Source: Eledone cirrhosa (taxonomy: Eukaryota). Taken from it: a stretch of DNA of 64,000 nt. The stretch lies in assembly GCA_964016885.1 (NCBI GenBank), contig OZ024745.1, positions 134,602,001 through 134,666,000 of the forward strand, given 5' to 3'. The position numbers and the translations under genes are program-made. Numbering within the stretch: position 1 is the first letter of the stretch; each line of letters opens with the position of its first letter. The notes under the pieces were generated by a model that did not search any database, was not told the origin of the DNA, and worked only from the letters and a program-made list of their open reading frames with translations. Below, in pieces: positions 10,886-64,000 of this stretch.

Positions 10886-11299
10886 ATATATATTTCTCAT
10901 TCTTTCTTCTGATGAAGGACTAGCGTCCAAAGACCCTCTTCCTGCTATATCAAGTGTACCGATATACTGTACCGATTGTGTTGTTATTTCTGTTTAGCTT
11001 TTATATACATATATAACTGATAGCAGATGTTCTGGTGAAATAGTGGTTTTACTGCTACAGATTGTAATGGAACTCTTGGTGGACACAATTGTAAAGTAGG
11101 AATGGATGACAGTGTAAGACTGATGTCGGCAAAAGAAAATTGTGTCTATATATATATATATAATTGTTACACAAGAGATATAATTAGATTAATTAAAGTT
11201 ATAATGAAGACAGACATTAGATTAATTAAAGTTATAATGAAGACGGCGGGTACTCGGTGTCATTGAGAATGATTCAACTCTCTTACCGGTGTCATCAAT

Positions 11300-11600
11300 C
11301 CCGTAAGGATGAAAGGGTAATTCAACTCAGATCGTAAAGAGAGGTAAATCTATGCTTCAAAGCATGCCGTCCGACCCTCTACCAATACTGCCAATCCATT
11401 GCCAGAGGTATTTTAAATAATTGTTTCTACTTTTGGCATAAGACCAGCAATTTACACAGTGCATTACTGGTACTTTATTTTATCGATCCCGTAAGGATGA
11501 AAGGCAAAGTTAACATCGACGGGATTTGAACTCAGACTGTAAAGGGACGTAACTATGCTGGAAAACATGGCATCCAACTCTCTACTGATACTGCCAAATA
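11300..11600 (-). mobile_element. Two decayed tRNA-derived SINEs with a Nin/Deu-like domain
   Basis: The minus strand has CTTTCATCCTTACGGGATCGATAAAATAAAGTACCAG and a B box GAGTTCAAATCC. Related fragments occur at about 1280-1340 and 41100-41195. Confidence 0.6.
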
Positions 11601-12060
11601 ATAAAGAGTCATGATAACAATAACCTGAAATATAGGATTACGTTGACTATACGGAATGACCAGTTATATTAAATGGTGAACCAACAAACCTAAATGTATA
11701 TATATATATATACAAGAGGGAGAATGATAGTCTGACGGTCTTCCAGTTTATTCCGAAGTCTGTACAAAAGATTTGCTGTTGATTGTATAACTAAGTTGTA
11801 ATGGATAATATGACTGCTATTTCTAGCAGTAAGAGAGACTACATAGAGGTTTTCTATTGATGTATAATTGATATTTTACTGAGTGATACTTTCTGATTTA
11901 CAATCAATTAAATACGATTGGAACTGTGTCTGAAGGTATTCAATTATATCAGGGACTTTTAATGTATGACACCGGTACGAGAGTTAAAACATTCTCAACG
12001 ACACCGCATACCTGCTGTCTTCGTTATAATTTTAATTAATCTAATTATATCTTGTGTAAC

Positions 12061-12094
<34 letters not shown>

Positions 12095-12098
<4 letters not shown>

Positions 12099-12439
12099 TC
12101 ATCATTTTATCATCATCATCATTTTACGTCCGCTTTTCCCTGCTTGCAAGGGTGGGACGGGAACTGATTCTGGCTTGATTTCTACAGCCGGATGCCCTTC
12201 CTAACACCAACCTCATTTACAGTGAGTGCTGGGTGCTTTTTTGCCGTGGCACCTCCACGACCACTTTGCAGTGGAATGATATGGACCCCAGTCCCTATCA
12301 TGTCATTTCTACAGCTGAGTAAACTGGAGCAATGTGAAATAAAGTGTCTTGCTCAAGGAAACAACACATCACCCGGTCTGAGAATTGAACTCACAACCTT
12401 TCGATTGCAAGGCTCTAACCACTAAGCCATGTGCCTCCA
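12095..12439 (-). mobile_element. CORE-type tRNA SINE with RTE tail
   Basis: Near-identical to 5185-5543 and inserted in a (TA)n tract. Confidence 0.85.
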
Positions 12440-12989
12440 TATATATATATACATACACACACACAATTTTCTATCCCCGACATCGGACTTGCACTGTCAT
12501 ATCTATTTTTGCTTTACAATTGTGTCTACTAGGAGTTCCATTACAATCTGTGGTAGTAAAACTACTATTTCACCAGAACATCTGCTATCAGTCATTTATA
12601 GACAATATATATACTTTAGACCACATATCAACCTAATATATATATATTTCCTATCAAATCTGTAGCTAGACATAAAGTCAGCCTCACTACTTCATTCTGA
12701 CAAGATATCAATTTATGACTAAAGATGAAGAAGATACACGAACGTTAATGTCGTGAAATAAAGCTGATAACATCTTTGAAACTTCTAATTTGATAACAAA
12801 GAGATTATTTCTTTGGTTGTTTAGTAACAACTAACAACACAACACATTGATTATATTTGAAGGAGGTAAGTTGACAAAGATTTACTTAATGTCTTTATTA
12901 ATGTGTGTAAATAATATAATATAATTATGTGAACCTTTCAACGATACAGTAATTATATACATGAAAATATATATAACAACATTACCACT

Positions 12990-13575
12990 AATAGTAAATA
13001 CTATACTGTACATTAGCTAATGTAGTCCTTGATACACTGTATCTGATAGCCAATAATACTAACTACTGTACATTAGATAATGTAGTCCTAGATACACCAC
13101 TATGGCACACAGCCACTAATACAAACTACTGTACTGTAGATTAGATAATGTAGTCCTAGATACACTATGTCTGAGAGCCACCAATACTAACTACTATACT
13201 GTACAGTAGATAATGTAGTCCTAGATACACTATGTCTGAGAGCCACTAATACTAACTACTGTACTGTACATTAGATAATGCAGTCCGAGATACACTATGT
13301 TTGATAGTCACTAATACTAACTACTGTACGTACATTAGATAATGTAGTCTTAGATACACTATGTCTGATAGCTACTAATACTAACTACTGTACTGTACAT
13401 TAGATAATGTAGTCCTAGATACACTATGTCTGATAGCTACTAATACTAACTACTATACTGTACACTAGATAATGTAGTCCTAGATACACTACGTCTGATA
13501 GCCACCAATATTAACTACTGTACTGTACATTAGATAATGTAGTCCTAGACTCCCCATGTCTGATAGTCACTAGTA
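12990..13575. repeat. 65-bp minisatellite, about 9 copies
   Basis: TAGATAATG recurs at about 13142, 13207, 13272, 13336, 13401, 13466 and 13531. Confidence 0.9.
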
Positions 13576-14204
13576 TATACGCAGTTCTCAGGGCGATTCA
13601 GCGAGACAAAACAAGACCGCCCGGTCTGGGATTCGAACTCACGAACCATACATTCTTAAATTACGCGCTATCACCGCGTAAACCCGGTGTCCTCCACACA
13701 AAATACACCAGAATAATTTAACCCGGATTAATTCACGAACGAGATTTACAATAATTCGCTGAGAGTGATCTCCCTTGGCTGATTTTAAAATCTTTTCTTC
13801 CATTAGAAATTAATTTGTTTCATGTCTGACTGAAAGACTCTGGAGTTTTTACCTGTCTTGGGTTTAATTAATGAGGAATTTTGAGGTATTTATAACAATT
13901 ATTAATTATTTCATTACTGAGATATCATTTGAAGGACTTACTAATGTTTTTATTTATTAATTATTTTATTAGTAACTTAACATGTGGTTCTTGTATAAAA
14001 TTATGTTGGAAGATTTTAGGAAGATGCTATGTAGCCGGTCGCGGTAAAATAGACGCCCAGGCTATGTAGCCGGTAAGAGTGTCAGACTCCATGTGTTGCG
14101 GCCCTTTATGGTCTGAGTTAAGACAATTTAAAATCTTTTCCACCATCAATTGTTAAAAAACAAGTTAAAATCATTTTGTCGTCCATTTGTAACGTACGTT
14201 ACAC

Positions 14205-14862
14205 TTTAGTTACATACACATATACTATGTTACATACACACATCTACTGTGTTACATACACACACATCAACTGGGTTACATACACACACATCTACTGCGT
14301 TACACACACATCTACTGTGTTACATACACACACATCTACTGAGTTACATACACACATCTACTGTGTTACATACACACACATCTTCTGTGTTACATACACA
14401 CATCTACTATGTTACATACACACATCTACTGTGTTACATACACACACCTGTGTTACATACACACACATCTACTGTGTTACATACACACACATCTACTGTG
14501 TTACACACATCTTCTATGTTACATACACACAATCTACTGTGTTACATACACACATCTACTGAGTTACATACACACACATCTACTGAGTTACATACACACA
14601 CATGTACTGTGTTACATACATACACATCTACTGTGTTACATACACACATCTACCGTGTTACACACACACATCTACCGTGTTACACACACACATCTACTGA
14701 GTTACATACACATATACTGAGTTACATGCAAACACACATCTACTGTGTTACATATACACATCTACTGTGTTACATACACATACATCTACTGAGTTATATA
14801 CACACACATCTACTGTGTTACACACACATCTACTGTGATACACACACACACACACATCTACT
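14205..14862. repeat. About 21-25-bp minisatellite (ACACACATCTACTGTGTTACAT)n
   Basis: Directly visible. It explains the ORFs at 14176-14881. Confidence 0.9.
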
Positions 14863-15699
14863 CATACATATTCATAAATAGACACACATTATACAAATAA
14901 TTATTACATACACACACATCTCTGTAATAATTCAGGAAGGAAGGGGCTGGTGAAACGCTATAGCAATGTGTGTGTGTTGTGTACCTTTCAGGTTTACCGG
15001 TTTCGTAGCCTATTTGAAGATTTTATTATAATTATGAACCTTATAATTCAATTAATTATGAATAATTTTGAGCTATTTATCACAATTGTTAGTTAATTAC
15101 TAACATAGTAACTTACCATATGGTTATTATATAGAATTTTGTTGGAAGACTTTAATTTAGATAGGAACCATTTCCATAGAACGAGAACTAATTTTGGCTG
15201 GGTTTCTACCAAAAGGGTTAATGAAGAATTTTGAACAATTTACTAAAATTATTAATTATTTCATTACTAAGATAATGTGTGAATACACAATTATATGTGT
15301 GTATATATGTATATATATATAAACAGTATATATATATATAGTATATATATATATATAAACAGTATATATATATAGTATATATATATATATAAACAGTATA
15401 TATATAGTATACAAAAGATGTAGTGGGATAGTGTGTAGTCTTAAGACAAGTCTGTCCAGATAGCTGCGCTGTAACTTACACTTATTGGGACTGTGTGTTG
15501 GCAAGCAGGCCTGTATTTTGGGATCTAGCTGGTCCATTATGAGGGAGGTCTGGTTAGTTGGCAGCACCATGCCTTACTTGTGGTATATGTATGTATAGAA
15601 ATAAGTTATTGTATATGCATAACTGTCCATCTATATGTATACATGTATGTTTACGTATATCTTTGCATACATATATACATTTTCAGATGTATACACGTA

Positions 15700-17620
15700 A
15701 TGGTCACCCGGATAGTAAACCAAGTCATACAGAATGGGGTTGTTCTGAAGGACTGGCGTAGCAGCATCATCATTAACTGTTACAAGGGTAAAGGAGACGC
15801 CCTAGATAGGAGTAACTATAGAGGCATTAAATTAATCGACCAGGTCATGAAGGTCACGGAAAAAGTAATAGCGCAACTAATCAGAGAGAGAATTGATCTA
15901 GATGAAATGCAGTTCGGGTTTGTGTCAGGTAAAAGTACCACAGACGCTCTTTTCATTGTACGACAACTACAGGAGAAGTACCTAGCTAAAAGTAAACCCC
16001 TATACTTAGCTTTTGTTGACTTGGAGAAAGCCTTGGACAGAGTCCCCCGTTCCATTATCTGGTGGGCTCTTAGAAAACTAGGTGTTGAGGAATGGCTTGT
16101 GAGAGCTATACGAGCCATGTATAAAGAAACAGTCAGCAAGGTTAGAATTAACAATGAATATAGTGAAGAGTTTAGCGTAAAATTTGGTGTTCATCAGGGC
16201 TCCGTCTTTAGCCCCCTATTATTTATTATTGCCCTTCAGGCTATAACAGTGGAGTTCAAGACCGGCTGCCCATGGGAACTCCTATACGCAAATGATCTAA
16301 CGCTCATAGCTGAATCAATGGCCGAGCTAGAGAAGAAATTCCAAACATGGAAGCAAGGCCTAGAATCAGAAGGCCTTAAAATTAACCTGGCTAAGACTAA
16401 AGTTCTAGTTTGTAGGAAAGAAAATAAGGCGCCGGTCCCTTCCGGGAAATGGCCATGCTCAGTGTGTAGGAAAGGCGTAGGTAGAAACTCCATTTTATGT
16501 CCCAAATGCAAAGTATGGGTTCATAAAAGATGTAGTGGGATCACAGGTAAGCTAACTAAGAACATAGATTTTACATGTGGCCGGTGCTCTGGTGCAATAA
16601 GTAGCAGCAAGTGCCCACAAAATACTAGCTCTTTCAATTGCGCAGAGGGTTCTATAGAAATAGTGGACAGCTTCCGTTACCTGGGTGACAAAATCAGCAG
16701 TGGGGGAGGGTGCTCTGAAAGTACAGTAGCTAGAGTCAGAACTGGATGGAAAAAGTTCAGAGAGCTTATACCACTATTAGCCGCTAAAGGGTTCTCCCTA
16801 AAAATGAAAGGCAGGTTGTATGATGCCTGCATATGAACAGCAATGTTGCATGGCAGTGAGACCTGGGCATTGTGTGCAGAGGATATATGCAAACTAGAGA
16901 GGAACGAAGCTTGCATGCTTCGCTGGATGTGTAATAGTAATATACGTGAACGGCAAAGCATAAACGAACTAAGGGAAAAATTAGAAATAAGAGGGATCAG
17001 ATGTTGTGTACTCGAGAGAAGACTACGTTGGTATGGTCCACGTGATGCGCATGAAAGACGACAGCTGTATAAAAAAAATGCAGGGCAATAAAGATAGACG
17101 GTAGCCACGGAGTAGGCAGACCCAGAAAAACCTGGGACGACTTGATAAATTCCGACCTCACACACTTACACCTCTCCAAGACAATGTCACTGGACCGAGA
17201 TCTTTGGCGGTGCTCAGTAATAGAGAAGACCCGCCTTACCTAAATACAAAGTAAAACCTACTACAGTCAGTAGGCACCTCTAACAAAATACACCCCCACC
17301 CCATCCACACCGCCCCTTTCACTGTAAAGTTATGTTGGTGCCACAACATCCAGGCCGAAACAAATGAGGTCGTGTAGGTGTCACGACAAAAAAAAAAACA
17401 CACAGTCCACGCAGTAATGTGGCCGTGTAGGTAACACGGTAAAAACTCCCAGTCCCACACTGTAAATGTGGTTGGTGTTAGGAAGGGCATCCAGCTGTAG
17501 AAAACCCGCCAGACAGTCCTATGCGAGCAAGACAACCACTCTTGCCTCAAGTGGGAAAACTCCCGTCCAAACCCATGCAAGCATGGAATATAGACGTTAA
17601 ACGATGATGATGATGATGAT
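15700..17620 (+). mobile_element. RTE-clade LINE, 5'-truncated, inactive (long-3'UTR subfamily)
   Basis: RT motifs NYRGIKL, QFGF, FVDLEKA, GVHQGS, a mutated catalytic YAND and FRYLGD. There is an in-frame stop at 16834, and the tail ends GACGTTAAAC(GAT)n. Confidence 0.95.
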
Positions 17621-17639
17621 ATATATATATATATATATA

Positions 17640-18403
17640 TATATTCCTTTGACATTTCTTAGAAAAAAAATGAAAAAGTTTTGTGAGAACCCCAATGTTT
17701 ATTTATTTTATTTTATTTTTAAATAAAATTAATAACATTAATTTTATTTTGAAATTAGGTTTATAAATATTAATTATCAGCAGACCTTTGTAGCAGTCTA
17801 GGCGGCTTAGTGGGAAGTACCAGAGATGGTGAGGTCCTTGTCTGTAGGTTCAATCGTTGCTGTAATGTGTCCTGTTAATCTTTTTTTCAACTTTCCTCAG
17901 AAAAAATGAAAATCTTTGGTGAGAACCCCAATGTCTATTTATCTAATATAATTTAATTAATTTTATTTTATTTTACTTTAGTTAAATTGTCGAAACCACT
18001 GGTGATCTAAAGTTAGAGGAGACAGATAAAATAGACATATTGTCTCCTCAACCTTTAGATCTTCAGTGTTTTCGACAATTTAACTAGAATAAAAAATTAA
18101 ATTCAATATAATTAAATAAATAGGGGTTCTCTTTTTCAAAGAGATATAGAAAGAAAATTATAAAAGATTAACATGACACCTTACATGTATCTCATGGACC
18201 AGGATTGAACCTCTGTCCTCAATTCAACCCTCAGACCAGGATTGAACACCCAGAACAGGATCTCACCATCTCTGGTACTTCCCACTAAGCTACCGAGACT
18301 GATACAAAGATGTACTGAAATTTAATATTTATAAACCTACTTTCAAAATAAAATTAAAAATAAAACGAAATAAATAGACATTGGGGTTCTAAACTTTAAT
18401 ATG

Positions 18404-18448
<45 letters not shown>

Positions 18449-18568
18449 CTTTGACATTTCTTAGAAAAAAAAACTGAAAAAGTTTTGTGAGAACCCCAAT
18501 GTCTATTTATTTTATTTTATTTTTAATTAAATTAAAAATAAAATGAAATCGACATTGGGGTTCTAAAC

Positions 18569-18610
<42 letters not shown>

Positions 18611-18770
18611 CTTTGACATTTCTTAGATAAAGAAACTGAAAAAGTTTTGTGAGAACCCCAATGTCTATTTATTTTATTTTATTTTTAAATCAAATTAATC
18701 AAATTAAATTAAATTAAAAATAAAATGAAATAAATCGACATTGGGGTTCTAAACTTTAATATATATATAT
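17640..18770. mobile_element. Full palindromic tRNA-head element (about 17640-18400) plus two internally deleted copies separated by (TA)n
   Basis: Each copy starts TTCCTTTGACATTTCTTAG and ends CATTGGGGTTCTAAACTTTAA. The central hairpin is at 17980-18085. Confidence 0.75.
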
Positions 18771-18772: not shown

Positions 18773-21670
18773 ATGGTGGATAAGATAATAAACGTAAATA
18801 TAGCGAATGACAGAATAATTAAAATAAGACTTGTTCTAAATAGAACTACGGTGACAGTAATATCTGTGTACGTGCCCCAATCCGGACTGCCCGGCACTAT
18901 AAAAGACAGATTCTATGAGACACTGATGCTCACTACCTCCCAAATAACCGACAGTGACTATATAATTATTGCTGGCGACCTAAATGGCCACGTTGGACAA
19001 CATTGTGACGGCTATGAAGGAATCCACGGAGGCTATGGGTTTGGTGAGGAAGGCTCCAGAATCCTGGAATTCTGTGACGCAAATAACCTAACTATCTGTA
19101 ACACTAACTTCAAAAAACGAAACAATCACTTGATCACCTATAGATCTGGGGACACACAAGCCAGGTAGATTATATCCTTACCAGGAGACGTGACAGAGTG
19201 TCTGTTGTAAACACTAAATCCCTCCCCCATGAAGAATGCAACTCCCAACATAGACTGATAATTAGCGACCTCATAGTCAGGACGAGACGTACTCGACAGC
19301 AGAAGAGGACTATCCTCAGGAGAAAAATATGGAAGCTAAAGGACCCCACAAACAGAAATAAATTTAAAAGCATATTACTTGATGCTTTCGACAGTAAGGA
19401 AGAGCATTTAGAGTCGTACAATATAGAGGAACAGTGGGAATTCCTGAAAGCAAAGCTGCTGATGGCGGCAGACAAAGTCTGTGGCTGGAGCAGACCTATA
19501 GGCAGGAGGAGAGTAACTTGGTGGTGGAACAGTAAGGTGGAGGAGTCAATTAAGGCCAAAAAGCAGGCTTGGAAAGTATAGCGGGAAGGGGGAAGTAGAG
19601 AAAACTATCAAGTGGCCAGGAGGGAAGCTAGGAGACAAGTGTACTTCTCAAGAAGGGAAGCAGAGAAAAGAAAGTTCAAGCATGTTCTACAACGCGAGGA
19701 CCAAAAACATGAGGTGTTCAGGATTGCTAGGCAATGTGTCAAGGAAAACCGTGATATTGTCGGGGAGAAGTGTGTCCTTAATGATGATGGTGTACTTGCC
19801 ATCACTGACGCTGATAAGAAGGTAGCTTGGAAGTGTCACTACGAAAGGCTACTAAATGAGGAGAATAAATGGGAAAAAGACAGTCTCCCCCACATCAACC
19901 CAATAGAGGGACCAGCAGTGTTAGTCAAAGGTAGTATAATAAGTAAGGCAATCAAAGACATGAAGACGGGTAAGGCGGCTGGGCCTTCGGAAATAGTTGC
20001 TGAAATGCTGAAAGCTTCTGGAACGGTGGGACACACCATGGTCACCCGGATAGTAAACCAAGTCATACATAATGGGGTTGTTCCGAAGGACTGGCGTAGC
20101 AGCCTCATCATTAACTGCTACAAGGGTAAAGGTGATGCCCTAGATAGGAGTAACTATAGAGCCATTAAATTAATCGACCAGGTCATGAAGGTCACAGAAA
20201 AAGTAATAGCGCAACTAATCAGAGAGAGAATTGATCTAGATGAAATGCAGTTCGGGTTTGTGTCAGGTAAAAGTACCACAGACGCTCTTTTCATTGTACG
20301 ACAACTACAGGAGAAGTACCTAGCTAAAAGTAAACCCCTATACTTAGCTTTTGTTGACTTGGAGAAAGCCTTCGACAGAGTCCCCCGTTCCATTATCTGG
20401 TGGGCTCTTAGAAAACTAGGTGTTGAGGAATGGCTTGTGAGAGCTATACGAGCCATGTATAAAGAAACAGTCAGCAAGGTTAGAATTAACAACGAATATA
20501 GTGAAGAGTTTAGCGTAAAAGTTGGTGTTCATCAGGGCTCCGTCTTTAGCCCCCTACTATTTATTATTGCCCTTCAGGCTATAACAGTGGAGTTCAAGAC
20601 CGGCTGCCCATGGGAACTCCTATATGCAGATGATCTAACGCTCATAGCTGAATCAATGGCCGAACTAGAGAAGAAATTCCAAACATGGAAGCATGGCCTA
20701 GAATCAAAAGGCCTTAAAATTAACCTGTCTAACACTAAAGTTTTAGTTTGTAGGAAGGAAAATAGGGCTCCGGTCCCATCCGGGAAATGGCCATGCTCAG
20801 TGTGTAGGAAAGGAGTAGGTAGAAACTCCATTTTATGTCCCAAATGCAAAGTATGAGTGCATAAAAGATGTAGTGGGATCACAGGTAGGCTAACTAAGAA
20901 TATAGATTTTATATGTGGCCGGTGCTCTGGTGCAATAAGTAGCAAGTGCCCACAGAATACTAGATCATTCCATTGCACAGATGGTTCTATAGAAATAGTG
21001 GACAGCTTCCGTTACCTGGGTGACAAAGTCAGCAGTGGGGGAGGGTGCTCTGAAAGTACAGTAGCTAGAGTCAGAACTGGATGGAAAAAGTTCAGAGAGC
21101 TTATACCACTATTAGCCGCTAAAGGGTTCTCCTAAAAATAGACGGTAGCCACGGAGTAGGCAGACCCAGAAAAACCTAGGACGACTTGATAAATTCCAAC
21201 CTCACACACCTACACCTCTCCAAGACAATGTCACTGGACAGAGATCTTTGGCGCTACACAGTAATAGAGAAGATCCGCCTTACCTAAGTACAAAGTGAAA
21301 CCTACTACAGTCAGCAGGCACCTCTAACAAAATACACCCCCGCCCCACTACCCCCACCCTATCCACTACACCACCCCTTTCAGTGTAAAGTTATGTTGGT
21401 ACCACAACGTCCAGCCCGAGACAAATGAGGTCGTGTAGGTGTCACGACAAAAAAACACACAGTCTATGCTGTAATGTGGCCGTGTAGGTAACACGGTAAA
21501 AACCTCCCAGTTCCACACTGTAAATGTGGTTGGTGTTAGGAAGGGCATCCAGCCATAGAAAACCCGCCAGACCGTCCTATGCGAGCAAGACAACCACTCT
21601 TGCCTCAAGTGGGAAAACTCACATCCAAACCCATGCAAGCGTGAAATATGGACGTTAAACGATGATCATG
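18773..21670 (+). mobile_element. Near full-length RTE LINE (APE endonuclease + RT + PHD-like finger), pseudogenised
   Basis: APE motifs SVYVPQ, AGDLNGHVG, QHRL and WWWN, and an intact YADD. Stops fall at about 19166, 19579, 20854 and 21133. About 290 bp is deleted at about 21135 relative to the 15.7 kb copy. (GAT)n tail. Confidence 0.95.
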
Positions 21671-21679
21671 ATATATATA

Positions 21680-23062: not shown

Positions 23063-23189
23063 CACTGTTGTATTCAAGAGACCAGGTGGAGGGGTGGGTC
23101 TGCTAGATTCATCGTGGGTAAAGAACGGTGCTATGAACTTTTCTGGGTGGGAAATGACAATGGGCTGGGTATACACATACCACCCCACC

Positions 23190-23408
23190 ACCCCACCGCA
23201 AAGTGGTCGTGGAGGTGCCACGGCAAAAAAGCACCCAGCCCGCTCTGTAAAGCTGACGTGGAGGTGCCACGGAAAAAAAAAAGAACCCAGCACTCACTGC
23301 AAACTGGGTTGGCGTCAGGAAGGGCACCCAGCTGTAGAAACCAATCCAGAATCAGCTCCCACCCCACCCTTGCAAGCATGGAAAAGCGGACGTATGATGA
23401 AGTTGATA
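23190..23408 (+). mobile_element. RTE-type 3' tail (LINE end or SINE tail) with an internal duplication
   Basis: CGTGGAGGTGCCACGG occurs twice, followed by GGAAGGGCA.CCAGCTGTAGAAAC and GGAAAAGCGGACGT. Confidence 0.7.
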
Positions 23409-46369: not shown

Positions 46370-46408
<39 letters not shown>

Positions 46409-49728: not shown

Positions 49729-49769
<41 letters not shown>

Positions 49770-52700
49770 ATGTATATATATGTATGTATATATTTGTCCT
49801 GGGTATGACATTAAACTACATCCAGTGGCAAGGCTCAAGTTCAGGAGGAACTGTGGGGAACATGGAGTTACCCCCTTAGTTGTCATAACTCCCAGGTCTG
49901 CTCTGGCCTGGTGTAGTAGTACCTGTTGGGGCCCCATTTATAGGTTAAATAATAAGATGACAGATCGGCGTACCCTATCAAAGGCCTTCTCTAGGTCAAC
50001 AAAGGCTAAGTATAGTGGCTTATTTTTCTCTAAGAACCTCTCTTGTAATTGTCTCATCAAGAAGAGGGCATCTGTTGTACTATTCCCAGGCACAAAACCA
50101 AACTGCATCTCATCTAGTTTGACCCTTTCTCTAATTAGTTGTGCTAATATCCTTTCTGCCACTTTCATAACCTGATCCATCAGTTTTATATCCCTATAAT
50201 TTCTCCTCTCAAGAGCATCCCCTTTACTTTTGCACTAGTCTTTGGGTATGACACTGCCATATATAGCCTGATTGATGATGTGTGCAACCAGTTTAGTGCC
50301 TACGTCCCCTGAGGCCTTCAGCATCTCAGCAACTATCTCCGATGGTCCAGCAGCCTCACCATTTTTCAATTCCTTAATCGCCTCTTGGACCCTATATTCG
50401 TTAATCTCAATTTTAAATGGACCTCTTGATAAGACGAAATGACCTGTATAATTTTTTTTTCATATTTAGATGGAATAGAAGAAAAAGAAGAGAAATGAAA
50501 GCAATGAAATTAAGTTTTAGAGAAAATATACGCCAACGACAATGGAGGTATGATTTCAGTTTAATCTTAACCTAATGACCACTTTACAGAGTGTACTGGG
50601 TGTGTCTTACCTCGCTATGTTTACTGTAAACCCTAGATAACGAATGCCTTGTTGAGTGTTGTGAATTGTGAACGTGAGGTTGTGTTGTGGGGTTGCTTGG
50701 TGAGGTTGCATAAGAAGGGTGTTGTGAGTTTGCATTATGATGTAGCTTTGTGAGGCTTTGTTGTGAATTGATAAATATTTGAAAACACACCTCTGTCCCT
50801 CAACAGTCAGTCAGTCATTTTCTACTAAAACTCATTGATGCGAGTCCCTAGCATTGTATCTGTAAGTACATTATGACTATTTTCTCTTGGTGGACTTGAC
50901 ATTCAAAGATATTTGTATATATTTTGTTGATGTTGTTTGTTAGTTAGGAAATTGCTTAAAAGCTACTTTGATCACAGCACTTTGTAAAGGCAACATATGT
51001 TTAAGATTCTTTTTTTCTTTTATTTTTGTTATTCAGATGACAGAGAATGCAAAGAAAGGCACAGAAGAAAAGAACAATGACGATTATTATTATTATTATT
51101 ACTATTATTATTTGTTTTATTATAATCAAAATATGCTGTTAGTTTGCCTGCTATCCCACTACGTGCCTGCTATCGCACTCGATCTTTTGTGTACGTTTTA
51201 TATAATTTATGCCAGTTCCGTTTCTGCATATCGAACATGGCCATTTCCCTGACGGAATAGAGTTTTGTCCTCTTTTCTACTCATCAACACTCATTCGTGA
51301 CACAAAGTACAGCGGCATCATTGCGGACAGACTTAATCCCGATTTGCACTGACACACTGCCTTGCAGTACGGAACAGCGCACGTCGTCGAGCAGCCTCCT
51401 TGCATGCTAAGTACACCTGACGTCTAGCTTCTCTCTTAGCGGCTGTATATTCTTCTCTACTCGCACTAATTTTGCAAGCATTCCATGCTAGTCTTTAGTC
51501 TCCAATGGCCCGATCTACCGTGCTGTCCCACCACCATGTCACTCTCTGTCTGGTTGGAACTCTGATCCAGCCACAAGTTTCATCAGTAACCTGCAGTAAG
51601 GTATCGCATAAGAAATTCCAGTTATCATCTATGTTGTACGACTCTAAATCGTCTTCTTTTTCATCATACACATATTGAAGGGCTTTCCTAAATTTGTATT
51701 TTAGTGAGAGCTCTTTTAGCTTCCAGACCTTTCTTTTTTCCACACCTTCCTGTATGTCTCATTCAGTCTCTTGCTTAATGAGATATCACTAACGACTAAC
51801 CTATGCTGTGGGGTACATTCTTCCCCGGGGTATGCCTTTGCATTTGACACCATCTGCCTGTCCCGCTGCCTAACTAGCAAGAAGTCAATCTGGCTTATGT
51901 GCTTGCCTGATTTGTAGGTTATTAGGTGGTTGGCAGATTTGTGTAAGTTAGTGTTGTAGATGGTTAGTGCAATTGCATTGCAAAATTCAAGAAGTTTCAC
52001 TGCTTCATTTCTTAAGCCGTAAGTGTGCCCAACATGTACCTCAGTGTAACCATCGTAGAGCTGTCCAACATGACCATTGAAATCCCCTGCTAGCATAACG
52101 ATGTCTCCGTCCTGTCATTGTGGCTGTTTGTAAAAATTGCTTGTAAATGCAGAATTTCTTGTCTTTACCTAGCAGCAGTTTCTTGCTCTCAATTAACCCT
52201 AAAACTAGCCGTAACGCTAACAGTAACACTAACCGTAACACTAACTTATGCAGGCCTAGGTAAAGACGAGAAAGATAAAACAAGGAGTGATGCTATTTGA
52301 ATTTTGTGATGCAAGTGTTTTAACCATTTGCAAAACCAACTTCCGCAAACCTGCCAACTGCCTAATAACCTACAAATTAGGCAAGCACAGAAGCCGGATT
52401 TCTCGGTAGTTAGGCAGCGAGACAGACAGATGGTGTGAAGTACCAGGGTGTGCCCCGGGGAGGACTGTTTCCCACAGCGTGGGTTGGTTGTTGGTGATGT
52501 CTCGGTGATCCTGAGACGGAGTGAGGAGGGTGTTTATAGGTAAATAGATAGACTGATGCACAGATATCTGGATAGATTGATAGAGAGATAGATATATAGA
52601 GAGCATCATTATCATCGTCTGTTCATCATTTTACGTCCGCTTTTCCCTGCTTGAAAGGGTGGGACAGGTCCTCTTGAGCAAAGCATCTCTTCACTTGTCA

Positions 52701-55700
52701 CGGTCCTTCGTCATCTCCTTGGTGAGTTTCAGCGATCTGAAGTCGGCTCTCACCACCTCCACCCATGTTTTTCGTGGTCTTCCTCTACTGCGTCTCCCTT
52801 CTTTACCCAGCGCTCAACCTCCATGCGCATCACATGTCCATACCATCTCAGTCCTCTCTTGCACACCACAACTTATCCCTCTTAAACACAGTTTCTCTCT
52901 CAACTCGTTTATGCTTGGTCGTTCCCGCACATTGACATTGCACATCCAACGGAGCGTGCTTGCTTCATTTCTCTCCAGCCATCGCATACCCTCTGCAGTT
53001 GCTGTCCATGTTTCACTACCATGCAGGGTCGCACATCTCACATAGGCATCATGTAACCACACTTTCGTACGCATATATATATTTGTATATATGTATATAT
53101 ATATATATATATATGTGTGTGTATGTATATATATGTATGTATATATTTGTCCTGGGTATGACATTAAACTACATCCAGTGGCAAGGCTCAAGTTCAGGAG
53201 GAACTGTGGGGAACATGGAGTTACCCCCTTAGTTGTCATAACTCCCAGGTCTGCTCTGGCCTGGTGTAGTAGTACCTGTTGGGGCCCCATTTATAGGTTA
53301 AATAATAAGATGACAGATCGGCGTACCCTATCAAAGGCCTTCTCTAGGTCAACAAAGGCTAAGTATAGTGGCTTATTTTTCTCTAAGAACCTCTCTTGTA
53401 ATTGTCTCATCAAGAAGAGGGCATCTGTTGTACTATTCCCAGGCACAAAACCAAACTGCATCTCATCTAGTTTGACCCTTTCTCTAATTAGTTGTGCTAA
53501 TATCCTTTCTGCCACTTTCATAACCTGATCCATCAGTTTTATATCCCTATAATTTCTCCTCTCAAGAGCGTCCCCTTTACTTTTGCACTAGTCTTTGGGT
53601 ATGACACTGCCATATATAGCCTGATTGATGATGTGTGCAACCAGTTTAGTGCCTACGTCCCCTGAGGCCTTCAGCATCTCAGCAACTATCTCCGATGGTC
53701 CAGCAGCCTCACCATTTTTCAATTCCTTAATCGCCTCTTGGACCCTATATTCGTTAATCTCAATTTTAAATGGACCTCTTGATAAGACGAAATGACCTGT
53801 ATAATTTTTTTTTCATATTTAGATGGAATAGAAGAAAAAGAAGAGAAATGAAAGCAATGAAATTAAGTTTTAGAGAAAATATACGCCAACGACAATGGAG
53901 GTATGATTTCAGTTTAATCTTAACCTAATGACCACTTTACAGAGTGTACTGGGTGTGTCTTACCTCGCTATGTTTACTGTAAACCCTAGATAACGAATGC
54001 CTTGTTGAGTGTTGTGAATTGTGAACGTGAGGTTGTGTTGTGGGGTTGCTTGGTGAGGTTGCATAAGAAGGGTGTTGTGAGTTTGCATTATGATGTAGCT
54101 TTGTGAGGCTTTGTTGTGAATTGATAAATATTTGAAAACACACCTCTGTCCCCTCAACAGTCAGTCAGTCATTTTCTACTAAAACTCATTGATGCGAGTC
54201 CCTAGCATTGTATCTGTAAGTACATTATGACTATTTTCTCTTGGTGGACTTGACATTCAAAGATATTTGTATATATTTTGTTGATGTTGTTTGTTAGTTA
54301 GGAAATTGCTTAAAAGCTACTTTGATCACAGCACTTTGTAAAGGCAACATATGTTTAAGATTCTTTTTTTCTTTTATTTTTGTTATTCAGATGACAGAGA
54401 AGGCAAAGAAAGGCACAGAAGAAAAGAACAATGACGATTATTATTATTATTATTACTATTATTATTTGTTTTATTATAATCAAAATATGCTGTTAGTTTG
54501 CCTGCTATCCCACTACGTGCCTGCTATCGCACTCGATCTTTTGTGTACGTTTTATATAATTTATGCCAGTTCCGTTTCTGCATATCGAACATGGCCATTT
54601 CCCTGACGGAATAGAGTTTTGTCCTCTTTTCTACTCATCAACACTCATTCGTGACACAAAGTACAGCGGCATCATTGCGGACAGACTTAATCCCGATTTG
54701 CACTGACACACTGCCTCGCAGTACGGAACAGCGCACGTCGTCGAGCAGCCTCCTTGCATGCTAAGTACACCTGACGTCTAGCTTCTCTCTTAGCGGCTGT
54801 ATATTCTTCTCTACTCGCACTAATTTTGCAAGCATTCCATGCTAGTCTTTAGTCTCCAATGGCCCGATCTACCGTGCTGTCCCACCACCATGTCACTCTC
54901 TGTCTGGTTGGAACTCTGATCCAGCCACAAGTTTCATCAGTAACCTGCAGTAAGGTATCGCATAAGAAATTCCAGTTATCATCTATGTTGTACGACTCTA
55001 AATCGTCTTCTTTTTCATCATACACATATTGAAGGGCTTTCCTAAATTTGTATTTTAGTGAGAGCTCTTTTAGCTTCCAGACCTTTCTTTTTTCCACACC
55101 TTCCTGTATGTCTCATTCAGTCTCTTGCTTAATGAGATATCACTAACGACTAACCTATGCTGTGGGGTACATTCTTCCCCGGGGTATGCCTTTGCATTTG
55201 ACACCATCTGCCTGTCCCGCTGCCTAACTAGCAAGAAATCAATCTGGCTTATGTGCTTGCCTGATTTGTAGGTTATTAGGTGGTTGGCAGATTTGTGTAA
55301 GTTAGTGTTGTAGATGGTTAGTGCAATTGCATTGCAAAATTCAAGAAGTTTCACTGCTTCATTTCTTAAGCCGTAAGTGTGCCCAACATGTACCTCAGTG
55401 TAACCATCGTAGAGCTGTCCAACATGACCATTGAAATCCCCTGCTAGCATAACGATGTCTCCGTCCTGTCATTGTGGCTGTTTGTAAAAATTGCTTGTAA
55501 ATGCAGAATTTCTTGTCTTTACCTAGCAGCAGTTTCTTGCTCTCAATTAACCCTAAAACTAGTCGTAACGCTAACAGTAACACTAACCGTAACACTAACT
55601 TATGCAGGCCTAGGTAAAGACGAGAAAGATAAAACAAGGAGTGATGCTATTTGAATTTTGTGATGCAAGTGTTTTAACCATTTGCAAAACCAACTTCCGC

Positions 55701-56441
55701 AAACCTGCCAACTGCCTAATAACCTACAAATTAGGCAAGCACAGAAGCCGGATTTCTCGGTAGTTAGGCAGCGAGACAGACAGATGGTGTGAAGTACCAG
55801 GGTGTGCCCCGGGGAGGACTGTTTCCCACAGCGTGGGTTGGTTGTTGGTGATGTCTCGGTGATCCTGAGACGGAGTGAGGAGGGTGTTTATAGGTAAATA
55901 GATAGACTGATGCACAGATATCTGGATAGATTGATAGAGAGATAGATATATAGAGAGCATCATTATCATCGTCTGTTCATCATTTTACGTCCGCTTTTCC
56001 CTGCTTGAAAGGGTGGGACAGGTCCTCTTGAGCAAAGCATCTCTTCACTTGTCACGGTCCTTCGTCATCTCCTTGGTGAGTTTCAGCGATCTGAAGTCGG
56101 CTCTCACCACCTCCACCCATGTTTTTCGTGGTCTTCCTCTACTGCGTCTCCCTTCTTTACCCAGCGCTCAACCTCCATGCGCATCACATGTCCATACCAT
56201 CTCAGTCCTCTCTTGCACACCACAACTTATCCCTCTTAAACACAGTTTCTCTCTCAACTCGTTTATGCTTGGTCGTTCCCGCACATTGACATTGCACATC
56301 CAACGGAGCGTGCTTGCTTCATTTCTCTCCAGCCATCGCATACCCTCTGCAGTTGCTGTCCATGTTTCACTACCATGCAGGGTCGCACATCTCGCATAGG
56401 CATCATGTAACCACACTTTCGTACGCATATATATATTTGTA

Positions 56442-56482
<41 letters not shown>

Positions 56483-59400
56483 ATATTTGTCCTGGGTATG
56501 ACATTAAACTACATCCAGTGGCAAGGCTCAAGTTCAGGAGGAACTGTGGGGAACATGGAGTTACCCCCTTAGTTGTCATAACTCCCAGGTCTGCTCTGGC
56601 CTGGTGTAGTAGTACCTGTTGGGGCCCCATTTATAGGTTAAATAATAAGATGACAGATCGGCGTACCCTATCAAAGGCCTTCTCTAGGTCAACAAAGGCT
56701 AAGTATAGTGGCTTATTTTTCTCTAAGAACCTCTCTTGTAATTGTCTCATCAAGAAGAGGGCATCTGTTGTACTATTCCCAGGCACAAAACCAAACTGCA
56801 TCTCATCTAGTTTGACCCTTTCTCTAATTAGTTGTGCTAATATCCTTTCTGCCACTTTCATAACCTGATCCATCAGTTTTATATCCCTATAATTTCTCCT
56901 CTCAAGAGCGTCCCCTTTACTTTTGCACTAGTCTTTGGGTATGACACTGCCATATATAGCCTGATTGATGATGTGTGCAACCAGTTTAGTGCCTACGTCC
57001 CCTGAGGCCTTCAGCATCTCAGCAACTATCTCCGATGGTCCAGCAGCCTCACCATTTTTCAATTCCTTAATCGCCTCTTGGACCCTATATTCGTTAATCT
57101 CAATTTTAAATGGACCTCTTGATAAGACGAAATGACCTGTATAATTTTTTTTTCATATTTAGATGGAATAGAAGAAAAAGAAGAGAAATGAAAGCAATGA
57201 AATTAAGTTTTAGAGAAAATATACGCCAACGACAATGGAGGTATGATTTCAGTTTAATCTTAACCTAATGACCACTTTACAGAGTGTACTGGGTGTGTCT
57301 TACCTCGCTATGTTTACTGTAAACCCTAGATAACGAATGCCTTGTTGAGTGTTGTGAATTGTGAACGTGAGGTTGTGTTGTGGGGTTGCTTGGTGAGGTT
57401 GCATAAGAAGGGTGTTGTGAGTTTGCATTATGATGTAGCTTTGTGAGGCTTTGTTGTGAATTGATAAATATTTGAAAACACACCTCTGTCCCCTCAACAG
57501 TCAGTCAGTCATTTTCTACTAAAACTCATTGATGCGAGTCCCTAGCATTGTATCTGTAAGTACATTATGACTATTTTCTCTTGGTGGACTTGACATTCAA
57601 AGATATTTGTATATATTTTGTTGATGTTGTTTGTTAGTTAGGAAATTGCTTAAAAGCTACTTTGATCACAGCACTTTGTAAAGGCAACATATGTTTAAGA
57701 TTCTTTTTTTCTTTTATTTTTGTTATTCAGATGACAGAGAAGGCAAAGAAAGGCACAGAAGAAAAGAACAATGACGATTATTATTATTATTATTACTATT
57801 ATTATTTGTTTTATTATAATCAAAATATGCTGTTAGTTTGCCTGCTATCCCACTACGTGCCTGCTATCGCACTCGATCTTTTGTGTACGTTTTATATAAT
57901 TTATGCCAGTTCCGTTTCTGCATATCGAACATGGCCATTTCCCTGACGGAATAGAGTTTTGTCCTCTTTTCTACTCATCAACACTCATTCGTGACACAAA
58001 GTACAGCGGCATCATTGCGGACAGACTTAATCCCGATTTGCACTGACACACTGCCTCGCAGTACGGAACAGCGCACGTCGTCGAGCAGCCTCCTTGCATG
58101 CTAAGTACACCTGACGTCTAGCTTCTCTCTTAGCGGCTGTATATTCTTCTCTACTCGCACTAATTTTGCAAGCATTCCATGCTAGTCTTTAGTCTCCAAT
58201 GGCCCGATCTACCGTGCTGTCCCACCACCATGTCACTCTCTGTCTGGTTGGAACTCTGATCCAGCCACAAGTTTCATCAGTAACCTGCAGTAAGGTATCG
58301 CATAAGAAATTCCAGTTATCATCTATGTTGTACGACTCTAAATCGTCTTCTTTTTCATCATACACATATTGAAGGGCTTTCCTAAATTTGTATTTTAGTG
58401 AGAGCTCTTTTAGCTTCCAGACCTTTCTTTTTTCCACACCTTCCTGTATGTCTCATTCAGTCTCTTGCTTAATGAGATATCACTAACGACTAACCTATGC
58501 TGTGGGGTACATTCTTCCCCGGGGTATGCCTTTGCATTTGACACCATCTGCCTGTCCCGCTGCCTAACTAGCAAGAAATCAATCTGGCTTATGTGCTTGC
58601 CTGATTTGTAGGTTATTAGGTGGTTGGCAGATTTGTGTAAGTTAGTGTTGTAGATGGTTAGTGCAATTGCATTGCAAAATTCAAGAAGTTTCACTGCTTC
58701 ATTTCTTAAGCCGTAAGTGTGCCCAACATGTACCTCAGTGTAACCATCGTAGAGCTGTCCAACATGACCATTGAAATCCCCTGCTAGCATAACGATGTCT
58801 CCGTCCTGTCATTGTGGCTGTTTGTAAAAATTGCTTGTAAATGCAGAATTTCTTGTCTTTACCTAGCAGCAGTTTCTTGCTCTCAATTAACCCTAAAACT
58901 AGTCGTAACGCTAACAGTAACACTAACCGTAACACTAACTTATGCAGGCCTAGGTAAAGACGAGAAAGATAAAACAAGGAGTGATGCTATTTGAATTTTG
59001 TGATGCAAGTGTTTTAACCATTTGCAAAACCAACTTCCGCAAACCTGCCAACTGCCTAATAACCTACAAATTAGGCAAGCACAGAAGCCGGATTTCTCGG
59101 TAGTTAGGCAGCGAGACAGACAGATGGTGTGAAGTACCAGGGTGTGCCCCGGGGAGGACTGTTTCCCACAGCGTGGGTTGGTTGTTGGTGATGTCTCGGT
59201 GATCCTGAGACGGAGTGAGGAGGGTGTTTATAGGTAAATAGATAGACTGATGCACAGATATCTGGATAGATTGATAGAGAGATAGATATATAGAGAGCAT
59301 CATTATCATCGTCTGTTCATCATTTTACGTCCGCTTTTCCCTGCTTGAAAGGGTGGGACAGGTCCTCTTGAGCAAAGCATCTCTTCACTTGTCACGGTCC

Positions 59401-59781
59401 TTCGTCATCTCCTTGGTGAGTTTCAGCGATCTGAAGTCGGCTCTCACCACCTCCACCCATGTTTTTCGTGGTCTTCCTCTACTGCGTCTCCCTTCTTTAC
59501 CCAGCGCTCAACCTCCATGCGCATCACATGTCCATACCATCTCAGTCCTCTCTTGCACACCACAACTTATCCCTCTTAAACACAGTTTCTCTCTCAACTC
59601 GTTTATGCTTGGTCGTTCCCGCACATTGACATTGCACATCCAACGGAGCGTGCTTGCTTCATTTCTCTCCAGCCATCGCATACCCTCTGCAGTTGCTGTC
59701 CATGTTTCACTACCATGCAGGGTCGCACATCTCGCATAGGCATCATGTAACCACACTTTCGTACGCATATATATATTTGTA

Positions 59782-59822
<41 letters not shown>

Positions 59823-62800
59823 ATATTTGTCCTGGGTATGACATTAAACTACATCCAGTGGCAAGGCTCAAGTTCAGGAGGAACTGTGGGGAACATGGAG
59901 TTACCCCCTTAGTTGTCATAACTCCCAGGTCTGCTCTGGCCTGGTGTAGTAGTACCTGTTGGGGCCCCATTTATAGGTTAAATAATAAGATGACAGATCG
60001 GCGTACCCTATCAAAGGCCTTCTCTAGGTCAACAAAGGCTAAGTATAGTGGCTTATTTTTCTCTAAGAACCTCTCTTGTAATTGTCTCATCAAGAAGAGG
60101 GCATCTGTTGTACTATTCCCAGGCACAAAACCAAACTGCATCTCATCTAGTTTGACCCTTTCTCTAATTAGTTGTGCTAATATCCTTTCTGCCACTTTCA
60201 TAACCTGATCCATCAGTTTTATATCCCTATAATTTCTCCTCTCAAGAGCGTCCCCTTTACTTTTGCACTAGTCTTTGGGTATGACACTGCCATATATAGC
60301 CTGATTGATGATGTGTGCAACCAGTTTAGTGCCTACGTCCCCTGAGGCCTTCAGCATCTCAGCAACTATCTCCGATGGTCCAGCAGCCTCACCATTTTTC
60401 AATTCCTTAATCGCCTCTTGGACCCTATATTCGTTAATCTCAATTTTAAATGGACCTCTTGATAAGACGAAATGACCTGTATAATTTTTTTTTCATATTT
60501 AGATGGAATAGAAGAAAAAGAAGAGAAATGAAAGCAATGAAATTAAGTTTTAGAGAAAATATACGCCAACGACAATGGAGGTATGATTTCAGTTTAATCT
60601 TAACCTAATGACCACTTTACAGAGTGTACTGGGTGTGTCTTACCTCGCTATGTTTACTGTAAACCCTAGATAACGAATGCCTTGTTGAGTGTTGTGAATT
60701 GTGAACGTGAGGTTGTGTTGTGGGGTTGCTTGGTGAGGTTGCATAAGAAGGGTGTTGTGAGTTTGCATTATGATGTAGCTTTGTGAGGCTTTGTTGTGAA
60801 TTGATAAATATTTGAAAACACACCTCTGTCCCCTCAACAGTCAGTCAGTCATTTTCTACTAAAACTCATTGATGCGAGTCCCTAGCATTGTATCTGTAAG
60901 TACATTATGACTATTTTCTCTTGGTGGACTTGACATTCAAAGATATTTGTATATATTTTGTTGATGTTGTTTGTTAGTTAGGAAATTGCTTAAAAGCTAC
61001 TTTGATCACAGCACTTTGTAAAGGCAACATATGTTTAAGATTCTTTTTTTCTTTTATTTTTGTTATTCAGATGACAGAGAAGGCAAAGAAAGGCACAGAA
61101 GAAAAGAACAATGACGATTATTATTATTATTATTACTATTATTATTTGTTTTATTATAATCAAAATATGCTGTTAGTTTGCCTGCTATCCCACTACGTGC
61201 CTGCTATCGCACTCGATCTTTTGTGTACGTTTTATATAATTTATGCCAGTTCCGTTTCTGCATATCGAACATGGCCATTTCCCTGACGGAATAGAGTTTT
61301 GTCCTCTTTTCTACTCATCAACACTCATTCGTGACACAAAGTACAGCGGCATCATTGCGGACAGACTTAATCCCGATTTGCACTGACACACTGCCTCGCA
61401 GTACGGAACAGCGCACGTCGTCGAGCAGCCTCCTTGCATGCTAAGTACACCTGACGTCTAGCTTCTCTCTTAGCGGCTGTATATTCTTCTCTACTCGCAC
61501 TAATTTTGCAAGCATTCCATGCTAGTCTTTAGTCTCCAATGGCCCGATCTACCGTGCTGTCCCACCACCATGTCACTCTCTGTCTGGTTGGAACTCTGAT
61601 CCAGCCACAAGTTTCATCAGTAACCTGCAGTAAGGTATCGCATAAGAAATTCCAGTTATCATCTATGTTGTACGACTCTAAATCGTCTTCTTTTTCATCA
61701 TACACATATTGAAGGGCTTTCCTAAATTTGTATTTTAGTGAGAGCTCTTTTAGCTTCCAGACCTTTCTTTTTTCCACACCTTCCTGTATGTCTCATTCAG
61801 TCTCTTGCTTAATGAGATATCACTAACGACTAACCTATGCTGTGGGGTACATTCTTCCCCGGGGTATGCCTTTGCATTTGACACCATCTGCCTGTCCCGC
61901 TGCCTAACTAGCAAGAAATCAATCTGGCTTATGTGCTTGCCTGATTTGTAGGTTATTAGGTGGTTGGCAGATTTGTGTAAGTTAGTGTTGTAGATGGTTA
62001 GTGCAATTGCATTGCAAAATTCAAGAAGTTTCACTGCTTCATTTCTTAAGCCGTAAGTGTGCCCAACATGTACCTCAGTGTAACCATCGTAGAGCTGTCC
62101 AACATGACCATTGAAATCCCCTGCTAGCATAACGATGTCTCCGTCCTGTCATTGTGGCTGTTTGTAAAAATTGCTTGTAAATGCAGAATTTCTTGTCTTT
62201 ACCTAGCAGCAGTTTCTTGCTCTCAATTAACCCTAAAACTAGTCGTAACGCTAACAGTAACACTAACCGTAACACTAACTTATGCAGGCCTAGGTAAAGA
62301 CGAGAAAGATAAAACAAGGAGTGATGCTATTTGAATTTTGTGATGCAAGTGTTTTAACCATTTGCAAAACCAACTTCCGCAAACCTGCCAACTGCCTAAT
62401 AACCTACAAATTAGGCAAGCACAGAAGCCGGATTTCTCGGTAGTTAGGCAGCGAGACAGACAGATGGTGTGAAGTACCAGGGTGTGCCCCGGGGAGGACT
62501 GTTTCCCACAGCGTGGGTTGGTTGTTGGTGATGTCTCGGTGATCCTGAGACGGAGTGAGGAGGGTGTTTATAGGTAAATAGATAGACTGATGCACAGATA
62601 TCTGGATAGATTGATAGAGAGATAGATATATAGAGAGCATCATTATCATCGTCTGTTCATCATTTTACGTCCGCTTTTCCCTGCTTGAAAGGGTGGGACA
62701 GGTCCTCTTGAGCAAAGCATCTCTTCACTTGTCACGGTCCTTCGTCATCTCCTTGGTGAGTTTCAGCGATCTGAAGTCGGCTCTCACCACCTCCACCCAT

Positions 62801-63121
62801 GTTTTTCGTGGTCTTCCTCTACTGCGTCTCCCTTCTTTACCCAGCGCTCAACCTCCATGCGCATCACATGTCCATACCATCTCAGTCCTCTCTTGCACAC
62901 CACAACTTATCCCTCTTAAACACAGTTTCTCTCTCAACTCGTTTATGCTTGGTCGTTCCCGCACATTGACATTGCACATCCAACGGAGCGTGCTTGCTTC
63001 ATTTCTCTCCAGCCATCGCATACCCTCTGCAGTTGCTGTCCATGTTTCACTACCATGCAGGGTCGCACATCTCGCATAGGCATCATGTAACCACACTTTC
63101 GTACGCATATATATATTTGTA

Positions 63122-63162
<41 letters not shown>

Positions 63163-64000
63163 ATATTTGTCCTGGGTATGACATTAAACTACATCCAGTG
63201 GCAAGGCTCAAGTTCAGGAGGAACTGTGGGGAACATGGAGTTACCCCCTTAGTTGTCATAACTCCCAGGTCTGCTCTGGCCTGGTGTAGTAGTACCTGTT
63301 GGGGCCCCATTTATAGGTTAAATAATAAGATGACAGATCGGCGTACCCTATCAAAGGCCTTCTCTAGGTCAACAAAGGCTAAGTATAGTGGCTTATTTTT
63401 CTCTAAGAACCTCTCTTGTAATTGTCTCATCAAGAAGAGGGCATCTGTTGTACTATTCCCAGGCACAAAACCAAACTGCATCTCATCTAGTTTGACCCTT
63501 TCTCTAATTAGTTGTGCTAATATCCTTTCTGCCACTTTCATAACCTGATCCATCAGTTTTATATCCCTATAATTTCTCCTCTCAAGAGCGTCCCCTTTAC
63601 TTTTGCACTAGTCTTTGGGTATGACACTGCCATATATAGCCTGATTGATGATGTGTGCAACCAGTTTAGTGCCTACGTCCCCTGAGGCCTTCAGCATCTC
63701 AGCAACTATCTCCGATGGTCCAGCAGCCTCACCATTTTTCAATTCCTTAATCGCCTCTTGGACCCTATATTCGTTAATCTCAATTTTAAATGGACCTCTT
63801 GATAAGACGAAATGACCTGTATAATTTTTTTTTCATATTTAGATGGAATAGAAGAAAAAGAAGAGAAATGAAAGCAATGAAATTAAGTTTTAGAGAAAAT
63901 ATACGCCAACGACAATGGAGGTATGATTTCAGTTTAATCTTAACCTAATGACCACTTTACAGAGTGTACTGGGTGTGTCTTACCTCGCTATGTTTACTGT
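42890..64000. repeat. Macrosatellite tandem array, unit 3.34-3.51 kb, 6 full units plus a partial one running off the window
   Basis: The same ORF recurs at 43064, 46577, 49938, 53291, 56631, 59971 and 63311 (periods 3513, 3361, 3353, 3340, 3340, 3340). Each unit contains a SINE-like piece, several minus-strand RTE fragments, a unique AT-rich segment and one plus-strand APE fragment. Confidence 0.97.
45570..45822 (+). pseudogene. Inverted RTE APE fragment with an A-to-G hypermutated tract (present in each complete unit)
   Basis: FRKPANCLITYK..RQRDRQMV*SSRVCPGEDCFPQRGLVVGDVS versus the partner arm LHKSANHLITYK..RQRDRQMVSNTKAYPGEECTPQHRLVVSDIS (45031-45295, minus strand). Confidence 0.8.

Follow-up and report, generated by a model that had tools for sequence, protein, structure and literature searches.

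In a 64,000-nucleotide stretch of the genome of Eledone cirrhosa (contig OZ024745.1, G000:C5:134602001-134666000 of a 3.0-Gb genome; hereafter the window), we identified a 6.7-kb block that is a copy of a locus on another contig, C12, and that differs from it by a cluster of A-to-G changes confined to the stems of two fold-back structures. We regard it as very probable that a read-through RNA of the C12 locus, likely edited by an ADAR, was likely reverse-transcribed into heritable DNA in the window. This would directly exemplify RNA editing turned heritable mutation, with a known parent locus, and the route visible in this insert is a new retro-insertion rather than a change at the source locus. 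An earlier note on the window, made from its letters alone, had proposed a whole system, in which edited hairpin RNAs are written back into the genome by the machinery of resident long interspersed nuclear elements (LINEs). The retroposition of an edited fold-back RNA is retained here for the 6.7-kb block, with its stem-limited A>G changes and its LINE-ended insertion; the system is not.

The insert and its parent locus

When the genome was searched with the 12.5-kb arm, the best 40 of 597 candidates included a 98% match on C12 bearing both arms. The C12 locus is interstitial and unedited, and the window block is colinear with it over about 4.8 kb of upstream passenger DNA and a 5'-truncated LINE (Table 1). 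We take this LINE to be RTE-like; the signs present are a reverse transcriptase domain (RVT_1), an endonuclease match and a microsatellite tail. At its 5' junction the block cuts off an older repeat, which extends further on C12 and in other copies of the family. As the repeat runs across this point on C12, it is the window copy that is derived. The earlier note had suggested looking for (GAT)n ends beside affected blocks, and the insert ends exactly at the (GAT)n tail of its LINE, past which C12 and the window diverge.

We then counted the changes from C12 to the window, tallying the LINE part and the minisatellites separately. In the hairpin arms, 14 of the 142 A became G, against 3 of 1045 in unpaired DNA outside LINE and minisatellites (p=3e-11), i.e., a rate about 34 times that of unpaired DNA in the same block. 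None of the 133 T of the arms became C, and the arms had no C>T. When polarised by other copies of the family, all 13 arm changes of the window lineage are A>G. They fall on the LINE-sense strand, the one expected to show them if it had been the RNA template. Three further arm differences date from the C12 lineage; an apparent G.U site at 11043 is one of them. Folding of the parent places all 13 edited positions in A-U pairs of long-range stems, so that 13 of 171 stem As changed and 0 of 379 other As did (p=2e-7). Both arms of both stems are affected, with eight changes on the left and five on the right. The LINE part has 2 A>G among its 16 window-lineage changes.

The neighbours of the changed positions were compared with those of other As. 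An ADAR-like context, which the earlier note had predicted, was found: pooling this insert with the 45-kb hairpin described below, a 5' G precedes 1 of 32 edited As and 45 of 184 other As (p=0.004; taken singly, p=0.13 for the insert and p=0.015 for the 45-kb hairpin). In the insert a 3' G follows 9 of the 13 edited positions (p=3e-5), and a 5' T precedes 8 of 13 (p=0.025). The genome encodes ADAR-type deaminase domains at four places.

The insert lies in the (AT)n of a subtelomeric repeat, of which empty forms are present in the window (Table 1; also at 18383 and 22656) and outside it on C1, C2, C3, C4, C6, and C1499. The left flank motif has 17 exact matches in the genome: four lead into the insert (C5, C6, and two on C1499), two into a second LINE of the same family, and the rest are mostly empty sites. 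Any target-site duplication would fall in a variable microsatellite, (AT)6 on the left and (AT)13 on the right, where it cannot be read. The subtelomeric repeat is AT-rich and partly palindromic (9595-10893, 17620-18774, and 21672-23070), and in the window its (AT)n took two LINE-ended insertions; it is possibly a preferred landing site. The LINE parts of the window and of C12 have four derived sites in common, the last at 16920, and a template switch within the last 700 nt of the insert is conceivable.

Four further copies of the insert were found at chromosome ends (C6, C18, and two on C1499), and they share every edit that they cover. The 5' junction is common to the C6 and C1499 copies, and the 3' junction is traversed in all four, C18 included. 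Hence, there was one insertion, which later spread as DNA. At position 12546, the C18 and C1499 copies read G, and both the window and the C12 parent read A. Contigs of a public run, possibly from the same sample, match 11016-11205 and 11216-11298 with zero mismatch, which disfavours an assembly error. Large internal deletions are seen in three copies on C6 and C1499 (L263, L266, and L268), one of them with a 5-nt microhomology joining the two hairpins. Splicing was considered as the origin of a 1237-nt deletion in the C1499 copies and rejected, since its ends are a 5-nt microhomology and not GT-AG. The 6.7-kb copy shows no intron loss relative to C12; its only three deletions of at least 10 nt (13-18 nt) are all in repetitive sequence.

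We infer the following course of events. A read-through transcript would have been made from the C12 locus, and an ADAR would likely have edited it in its two fold-back stems. The enzyme of an RTE-type LINE would then likely have reverse-transcribed the edited RNA into the (AT)n of the subtelomeric repeat, by target-primed reverse transcription that started at the 3' end of the truncated LINE, in trans and in a germline cell. The 13 edits would thereby have been fixed as A>G mutations in DNA, and DNA-level duplication then carried the insert to other chromosome ends.

The 45-kb hairpin and its tandem array

A second hairpin (45037-45293/45570-45822) has 30 G.T against 6 A.C mismatches between its arms (p=7e-5) and folds into a long RNA hairpin (z=-26 relative to 20 shuffles). 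Its changes were polarised with two outgroup copies of the LINE family rather than with a parent. In the right arm, A>G changes affect 18 of 78 A and T>C changes 4 of 51 T (p=0.03); before dropping one change shared with the left arm, the former count is 19 of 79. Within 45720-45826 the counts are 14 of 34 A and 1 of 18 T. A 5' G precedes 1 of 19 changed sites and 19 of 55 others. The left arm has no excess over its unpaired part (p=0.72). The right-arm changes are mostly non-synonymous in the LINE endonuclease frame, in a short fragment that has other frame breaks. Repeats of a CTAAC motif followed by CAG, which resemble a branch point and a splice acceptor, occur at 45480-45545 and 43580-43610; these signals lie shortly before the edited right arm, which is followed by GTAAAT.

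The hairpin belongs to a 3.35-kb unit built of LINE fragments (3.7 kb on C4 and C7). As the unit is tandem, its six hairpin repeats in the window represent one event. Among the best 40 of 2010 candidates, the unit was found on at least 12 contigs, mostly near contig ends. The arrays begin and end at the same points within a larger duplicated block, and C1 and C2 have the unit in single-copy form. G is retained at the listed sites in each of the 70 right-arm matches from the fetched loci; some copies enter this count twice, where loci overlap. The later variants in the right arm of the array comprise 2 A>G and 2 T>C among 12, without an A>G excess in the arms. Since all copies keep the Gs and there is no later excess, this suggests a single editing before DNA-level amplification. 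Short pattern searches of the genome did not find an unedited parent, and the DNA search gave array copies only. We think that this hairpin probably goes back to an earlier, separate event of the same type as the insert. In the simplest reading only the sense-strand fragment passed through an edited RNA, and the 45-kb hairpin itself may or may not have been the editing substrate.

Strand polarity in the window and across the genome

The earlier note started from a polarity that it saw as common to unrelated inverted repeats, with extra Gs on the plus strand in two strong and two weak cases. We counted G.T and A.C mismatches in the inverted pairs given by a self-comparison of the window. The plus-strand polarity stands for the 45-kb hairpin and, via its paralog, for the region at 11.0-12.6 kb. 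There, the raw counts are not significant (12 G.T and 5 A.C for 11009-11162/12444-12599, p=0.14; 4 and 3 for the nested 11.2/12.0-kb pair), and it is the comparison with the unedited paralog that makes this the strongest case. The polarity does not hold overall: the pair 23245-23447/27936-28146, absent from the earlier list, is reversed (3 G.T and 20 A.C, p=5e-4), and the remaining pairs have balanced mismatches. Among the two weak cases, the repeat at 31.7-32.3 kb is real yet symmetric (Table 1). The other, at 45443-45561, is a 23-pair stem with only 2 G.T and is not independent, because it sits in the loop of the 45-kb hairpin. Hence, the candidates number two and not four. A SINE-like copy (short interspersed nuclear element) at 23 kb was tried as a further editing case and is not counted: about 3 of its approximately 10 T>C show a G on the 5' side when read on the minus strand, and similarity among the copies compared is only about 85%.

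To assess generality, we took 79 stretches of 10 kb at evenly spaced round coordinates (790 kb), masked tandem repeats (30%), and scored repeat pairs. Close inverted pairs with at least six transitions show no overall asymmetry (n=37, mean z2 0.92, one of 37 at p<0.01), and the values are similar for distant inverted pairs (n=36, mean z2 1.04), direct pairs (n=84, 1.02), and cross-locus pairs (n=4765, 1.02). The earlier note had expected a genome-wide asymmetry of close inverted repeats and had named an equal asymmetry of direct repeats as the sign of an ordinary transcription-coupled bias; neither is seen in this sample. Direct-repeat outliers in a first 400-kb sample were minisatellites and disappeared after masking. 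The sole skewed pair of the 37 (L132:7964-8166/8958-9157, at G000:C4:50.008 Mb; 1 G.T and 12 A.C) is possibly a minus-strand case, and its closest paralog gave no explanation. The test is blunt, as lightly edited copies such as the insert would fail it. The absence of a general skew speaks against a pervasive system, and it likewise makes transcription-coupled bias a poor explanation of the two cases.

These results make it highly unlikely that a system of the proposed kind operates here, in which pieces of one long, edited plus-strand RNA would repeatedly overwrite local DNA or disable transposons in the manner of repeat-induced point mutation (RIP). In its favour, both strong cases are on the plus strand, the changes of the 45-kb hairpin are largely non-synonymous, and the G at 12546 in some copies only would fit recurrent editing. 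Young LINE copies are present in the region, as the note had said. Against a single long transcript, the RNA of the insert came from another chromosome and one window pair has the reverse polarity. RNA-templated repair fits poorly with a C12 parent that stays unedited, with the balanced later variants of the array, and with one set of edits in all copies of the insert. Inactivation of coding sequence is not apparent either, because the edits of the insert spare an already 5'-truncated LINE and the 45-kb fragment has other frame breaks. The lack of overdispersion among close inverted repeats points in the same direction. We consider it likely that both cases are sporadic by-products of abundant editing and active LINEs, and not a defence system.

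The window lies about 60-125 kb from the contig end and consists nearly entirely of LINE fragments, SINE-like repeats, satellites, and the 3.35-kb tandem array. Minus-strand fragments of a different non-LTR (non-long terminal repeat) element, with a reverse transcriptase match and a KRPDG motif, are found at 2637-4462 and 25279-27360 and are duplicated within a subtelomeric unit; we take the motif to belong to the restriction-like endonuclease of site-specific clades. An 11-bp satellite with a strong strand skew occupies 6704-9594 (about 265 copies). A third LINE type, presumably CR1/L2-like, is present as minus-strand fragments with a reverse transcriptase match at 29888-31119.

Table 1. Positions of the features discussed, numbered from the first letter of the window
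Feature	Positions	Strand	Remarks
Target site, left half	10866..10893	+	Subtelomeric repeat motif, then (AT)6
Insert block	10892..17619	+	6.7-kb copy of G000:C12:24867238-24873926 (minus strand); likely retro-inserted
Outer hairpin, left arm	11016..11142	+	6 A>G: 11045, 11054, 11078, 11081, 11099, 11104
Inner hairpin, left arm	11216..11295	+	2 A>G: 11245, 11248
Inner hairpin, right arm	11966..12045	+	1 A>G: 12023
Outer hairpin, right arm	12463..12592	+	4 A>G: 12491, 12511, 12532, 12552
5'-truncated LINE, presumably RTE-like	15697..17619	+	Reverse transcriptase (Pfam RVT_1), PHD-like segment (Pfam PHD), 3' untranslated region, (GAT)n tail
Target site, right half	17620..17660	+	(AT)13, then rest of repeat
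Empty target site	18557..18625	+	
Second 5'-truncated LINE, same family	18775..21672	+	Within (AT)n of another copy of the target repeat
SINE-like copy	23185..23410	+	About 10 T>C on the plus strand relative to family copies, reverse polarity; occurs at many chromosome ends
Old inverted repeat	31690..32284	none	Score above all 100 shuffles; 5 G.T and 6 A.C (7 and 9 in another count); outside the phenomenon
Tandem array, 3.35-kb unit with the 45-kb hairpin	42888..64000	none	Runs on to ~69750; inside a segmental duplication common to many chromosome ends
45-kb hairpin, left arm	45037..45293	-	LINE endonuclease region; A>G 4/52 in arm, 3/53 outside
45-kb hairpin, right arm	45570..45826	+	Sense-strand LINE endonuclease fragment; 18 private A>G

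Alternative origins and relation to known systems

Could the block have reached the window without passing through RNA? It may have moved as DNA, or a deaminase may have edited the DNA itself, either in a single-stranded fold-back or within an RNA:DNA hybrid; ADARs are able to edit DNA in such hybrids, according to the available text of PMC12925331 with its reference 166, and both the unreadable target-site duplication and the lack of intron loss are compatible with this origin. Editing in a hybrid would not limit the changes to self-complementary arms, whereas no A outside the stems changed, and the block ends exactly at the LINE tail, in a microsatellite that a second LINE also entered nearby. 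A route through DNA thus appears quite improbable to us. Ordinary mutation (a transcription-coupled A>G bias, chance clusters, selection for G.U wobble, or an assembly artefact) is barely credible as an overall explanation and largely refuted for the insert, even if the raw mismatch count of the insert is not significant and the right arm of the 45-kb hairpin has diverged in general, because the arms changed far faster than unpaired DNA, there is no overdispersion among direct, distant-inverted, or cross-locus pairs, wobble selection should also have allowed the C>T that is missing from the arms, and the edits recur in four other copies and in the contigs of the public run.

Some observations nevertheless weigh against reverse transcription of an edited RNA. 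Transcription of the C12 locus and its editing are deduced from DNA, and, with no readable duplication and no intron lost, it is the LINE-end junction and the pattern of edits that support an RNA stage. A look for RNA runs covering the stretch gave none, a result that is uninformative about expression. The preference for a 3' G is strong in the insert, and the sites reported in the available text of PMC5625713 show a weak one at octopus hyper-edited positions. For the 45-kb hairpin, the parent was not found, only two outgroup copies could be used, the excess is one-sided, and the right arm carries 28 substitutions other than A>G.

If an edited read-through RNA did become DNA in this way, the edits record the identity of the RNA strand and an editing activity in cells that pass DNA to offspring, and parent-copy pairs render the rate of such events testable genome-wide. 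More tentatively, at somewhat less than even chances, germline ADAR and promiscuous LINE reverse transcriptases may in this lineage form a recurring RNA-to-DNA mutation channel, with a subtelomeric repeat as landing site and subsequent amplification over chromosome ends. If true, past RNA editing in the germline has left a datable fossil record in the genome, and edited host sequence can become fixed.

Several known systems resemble parts of this picture. RIP of fungi hits DNA duplicates in either orientation, systematically and with C>T changes. It is similar in that mutation clusters are tied to repeats; here the changes are on one strand, A>G, rare, and linked to a retro-insertion. Hyper-editing of repeat-derived double-stranded RNA by ADAR (Porath et al., PMC5625713) has nearby inverted repeats as its substrate and the depletion of 5' G as its signature, and its level is very high in octopus; in the available text of that paper it is a matter of RNA only, whereas the marks described here are in genomic DNA. 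The octopus genome also has active RTE LINEs with microsatellite ends, as the accessible part of PMC9115989 indicates. The portion available of PMC5224506 reports ADAR1 without detectable editing of L1 RNA in human cells, and that of PMC10209271 presents the mechanistic origin of A>G substitutions at edited sites from editing as debated.

The closest parallels are scars left in DNA by deaminases. ADAR-type A-to-G hypermutation fixed in proviral DNA is described for Rous-associated virus, avian leukosis virus, and human and simian T-lymphotropic viruses (HTLV-2/STLV-3) in the text available of PMC12925331, and for bovine leukaemia virus (BLV) in that of PMC8025556. As here, reverse transcription of an edited RNA leaves clustered A>G in DNA, including in an inverted-repeat region; as far as these texts go, the carriers are exogenous retroviruses in somatic cells, whereas here they would be a host read-through RNA and likely a non-LTR copier, with edits in passenger DNA and a copy that is inherited and duplicated. 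The LTR retrotransposons edited by APOBEC (Knisbacher and Levanon, PMC4866542) also bear a permanent deaminase scar that is read by comparing copy and source. By the available text, their scar is G>A, arises by cDNA editing in vertebrates, and has a shown role in restriction; ours is A>G, limited to double-stranded stems, and without sign of restriction. The structure of the insert recalls 5'-transducing non-LTR insertions such as SVA, in which upstream host sequence travels with a non-autonomous element mobilised in trans (PMC3287187, in the part available). SVA has a poly(A) tail and an L1 site, whereas the insert has a presumably RTE-like LINE, a (GAT)n tail, a microsatellite target, and an edited passenger. 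A full-text literature search, with most subscription papers outside its scope, gave no description of ADAR-edited endogenous non-LTR copies. What the window contributes is the complete triad of parent, insert, and empty site with the edits in passenger DNA, together with an edited fragment amplified over chromosome ends.

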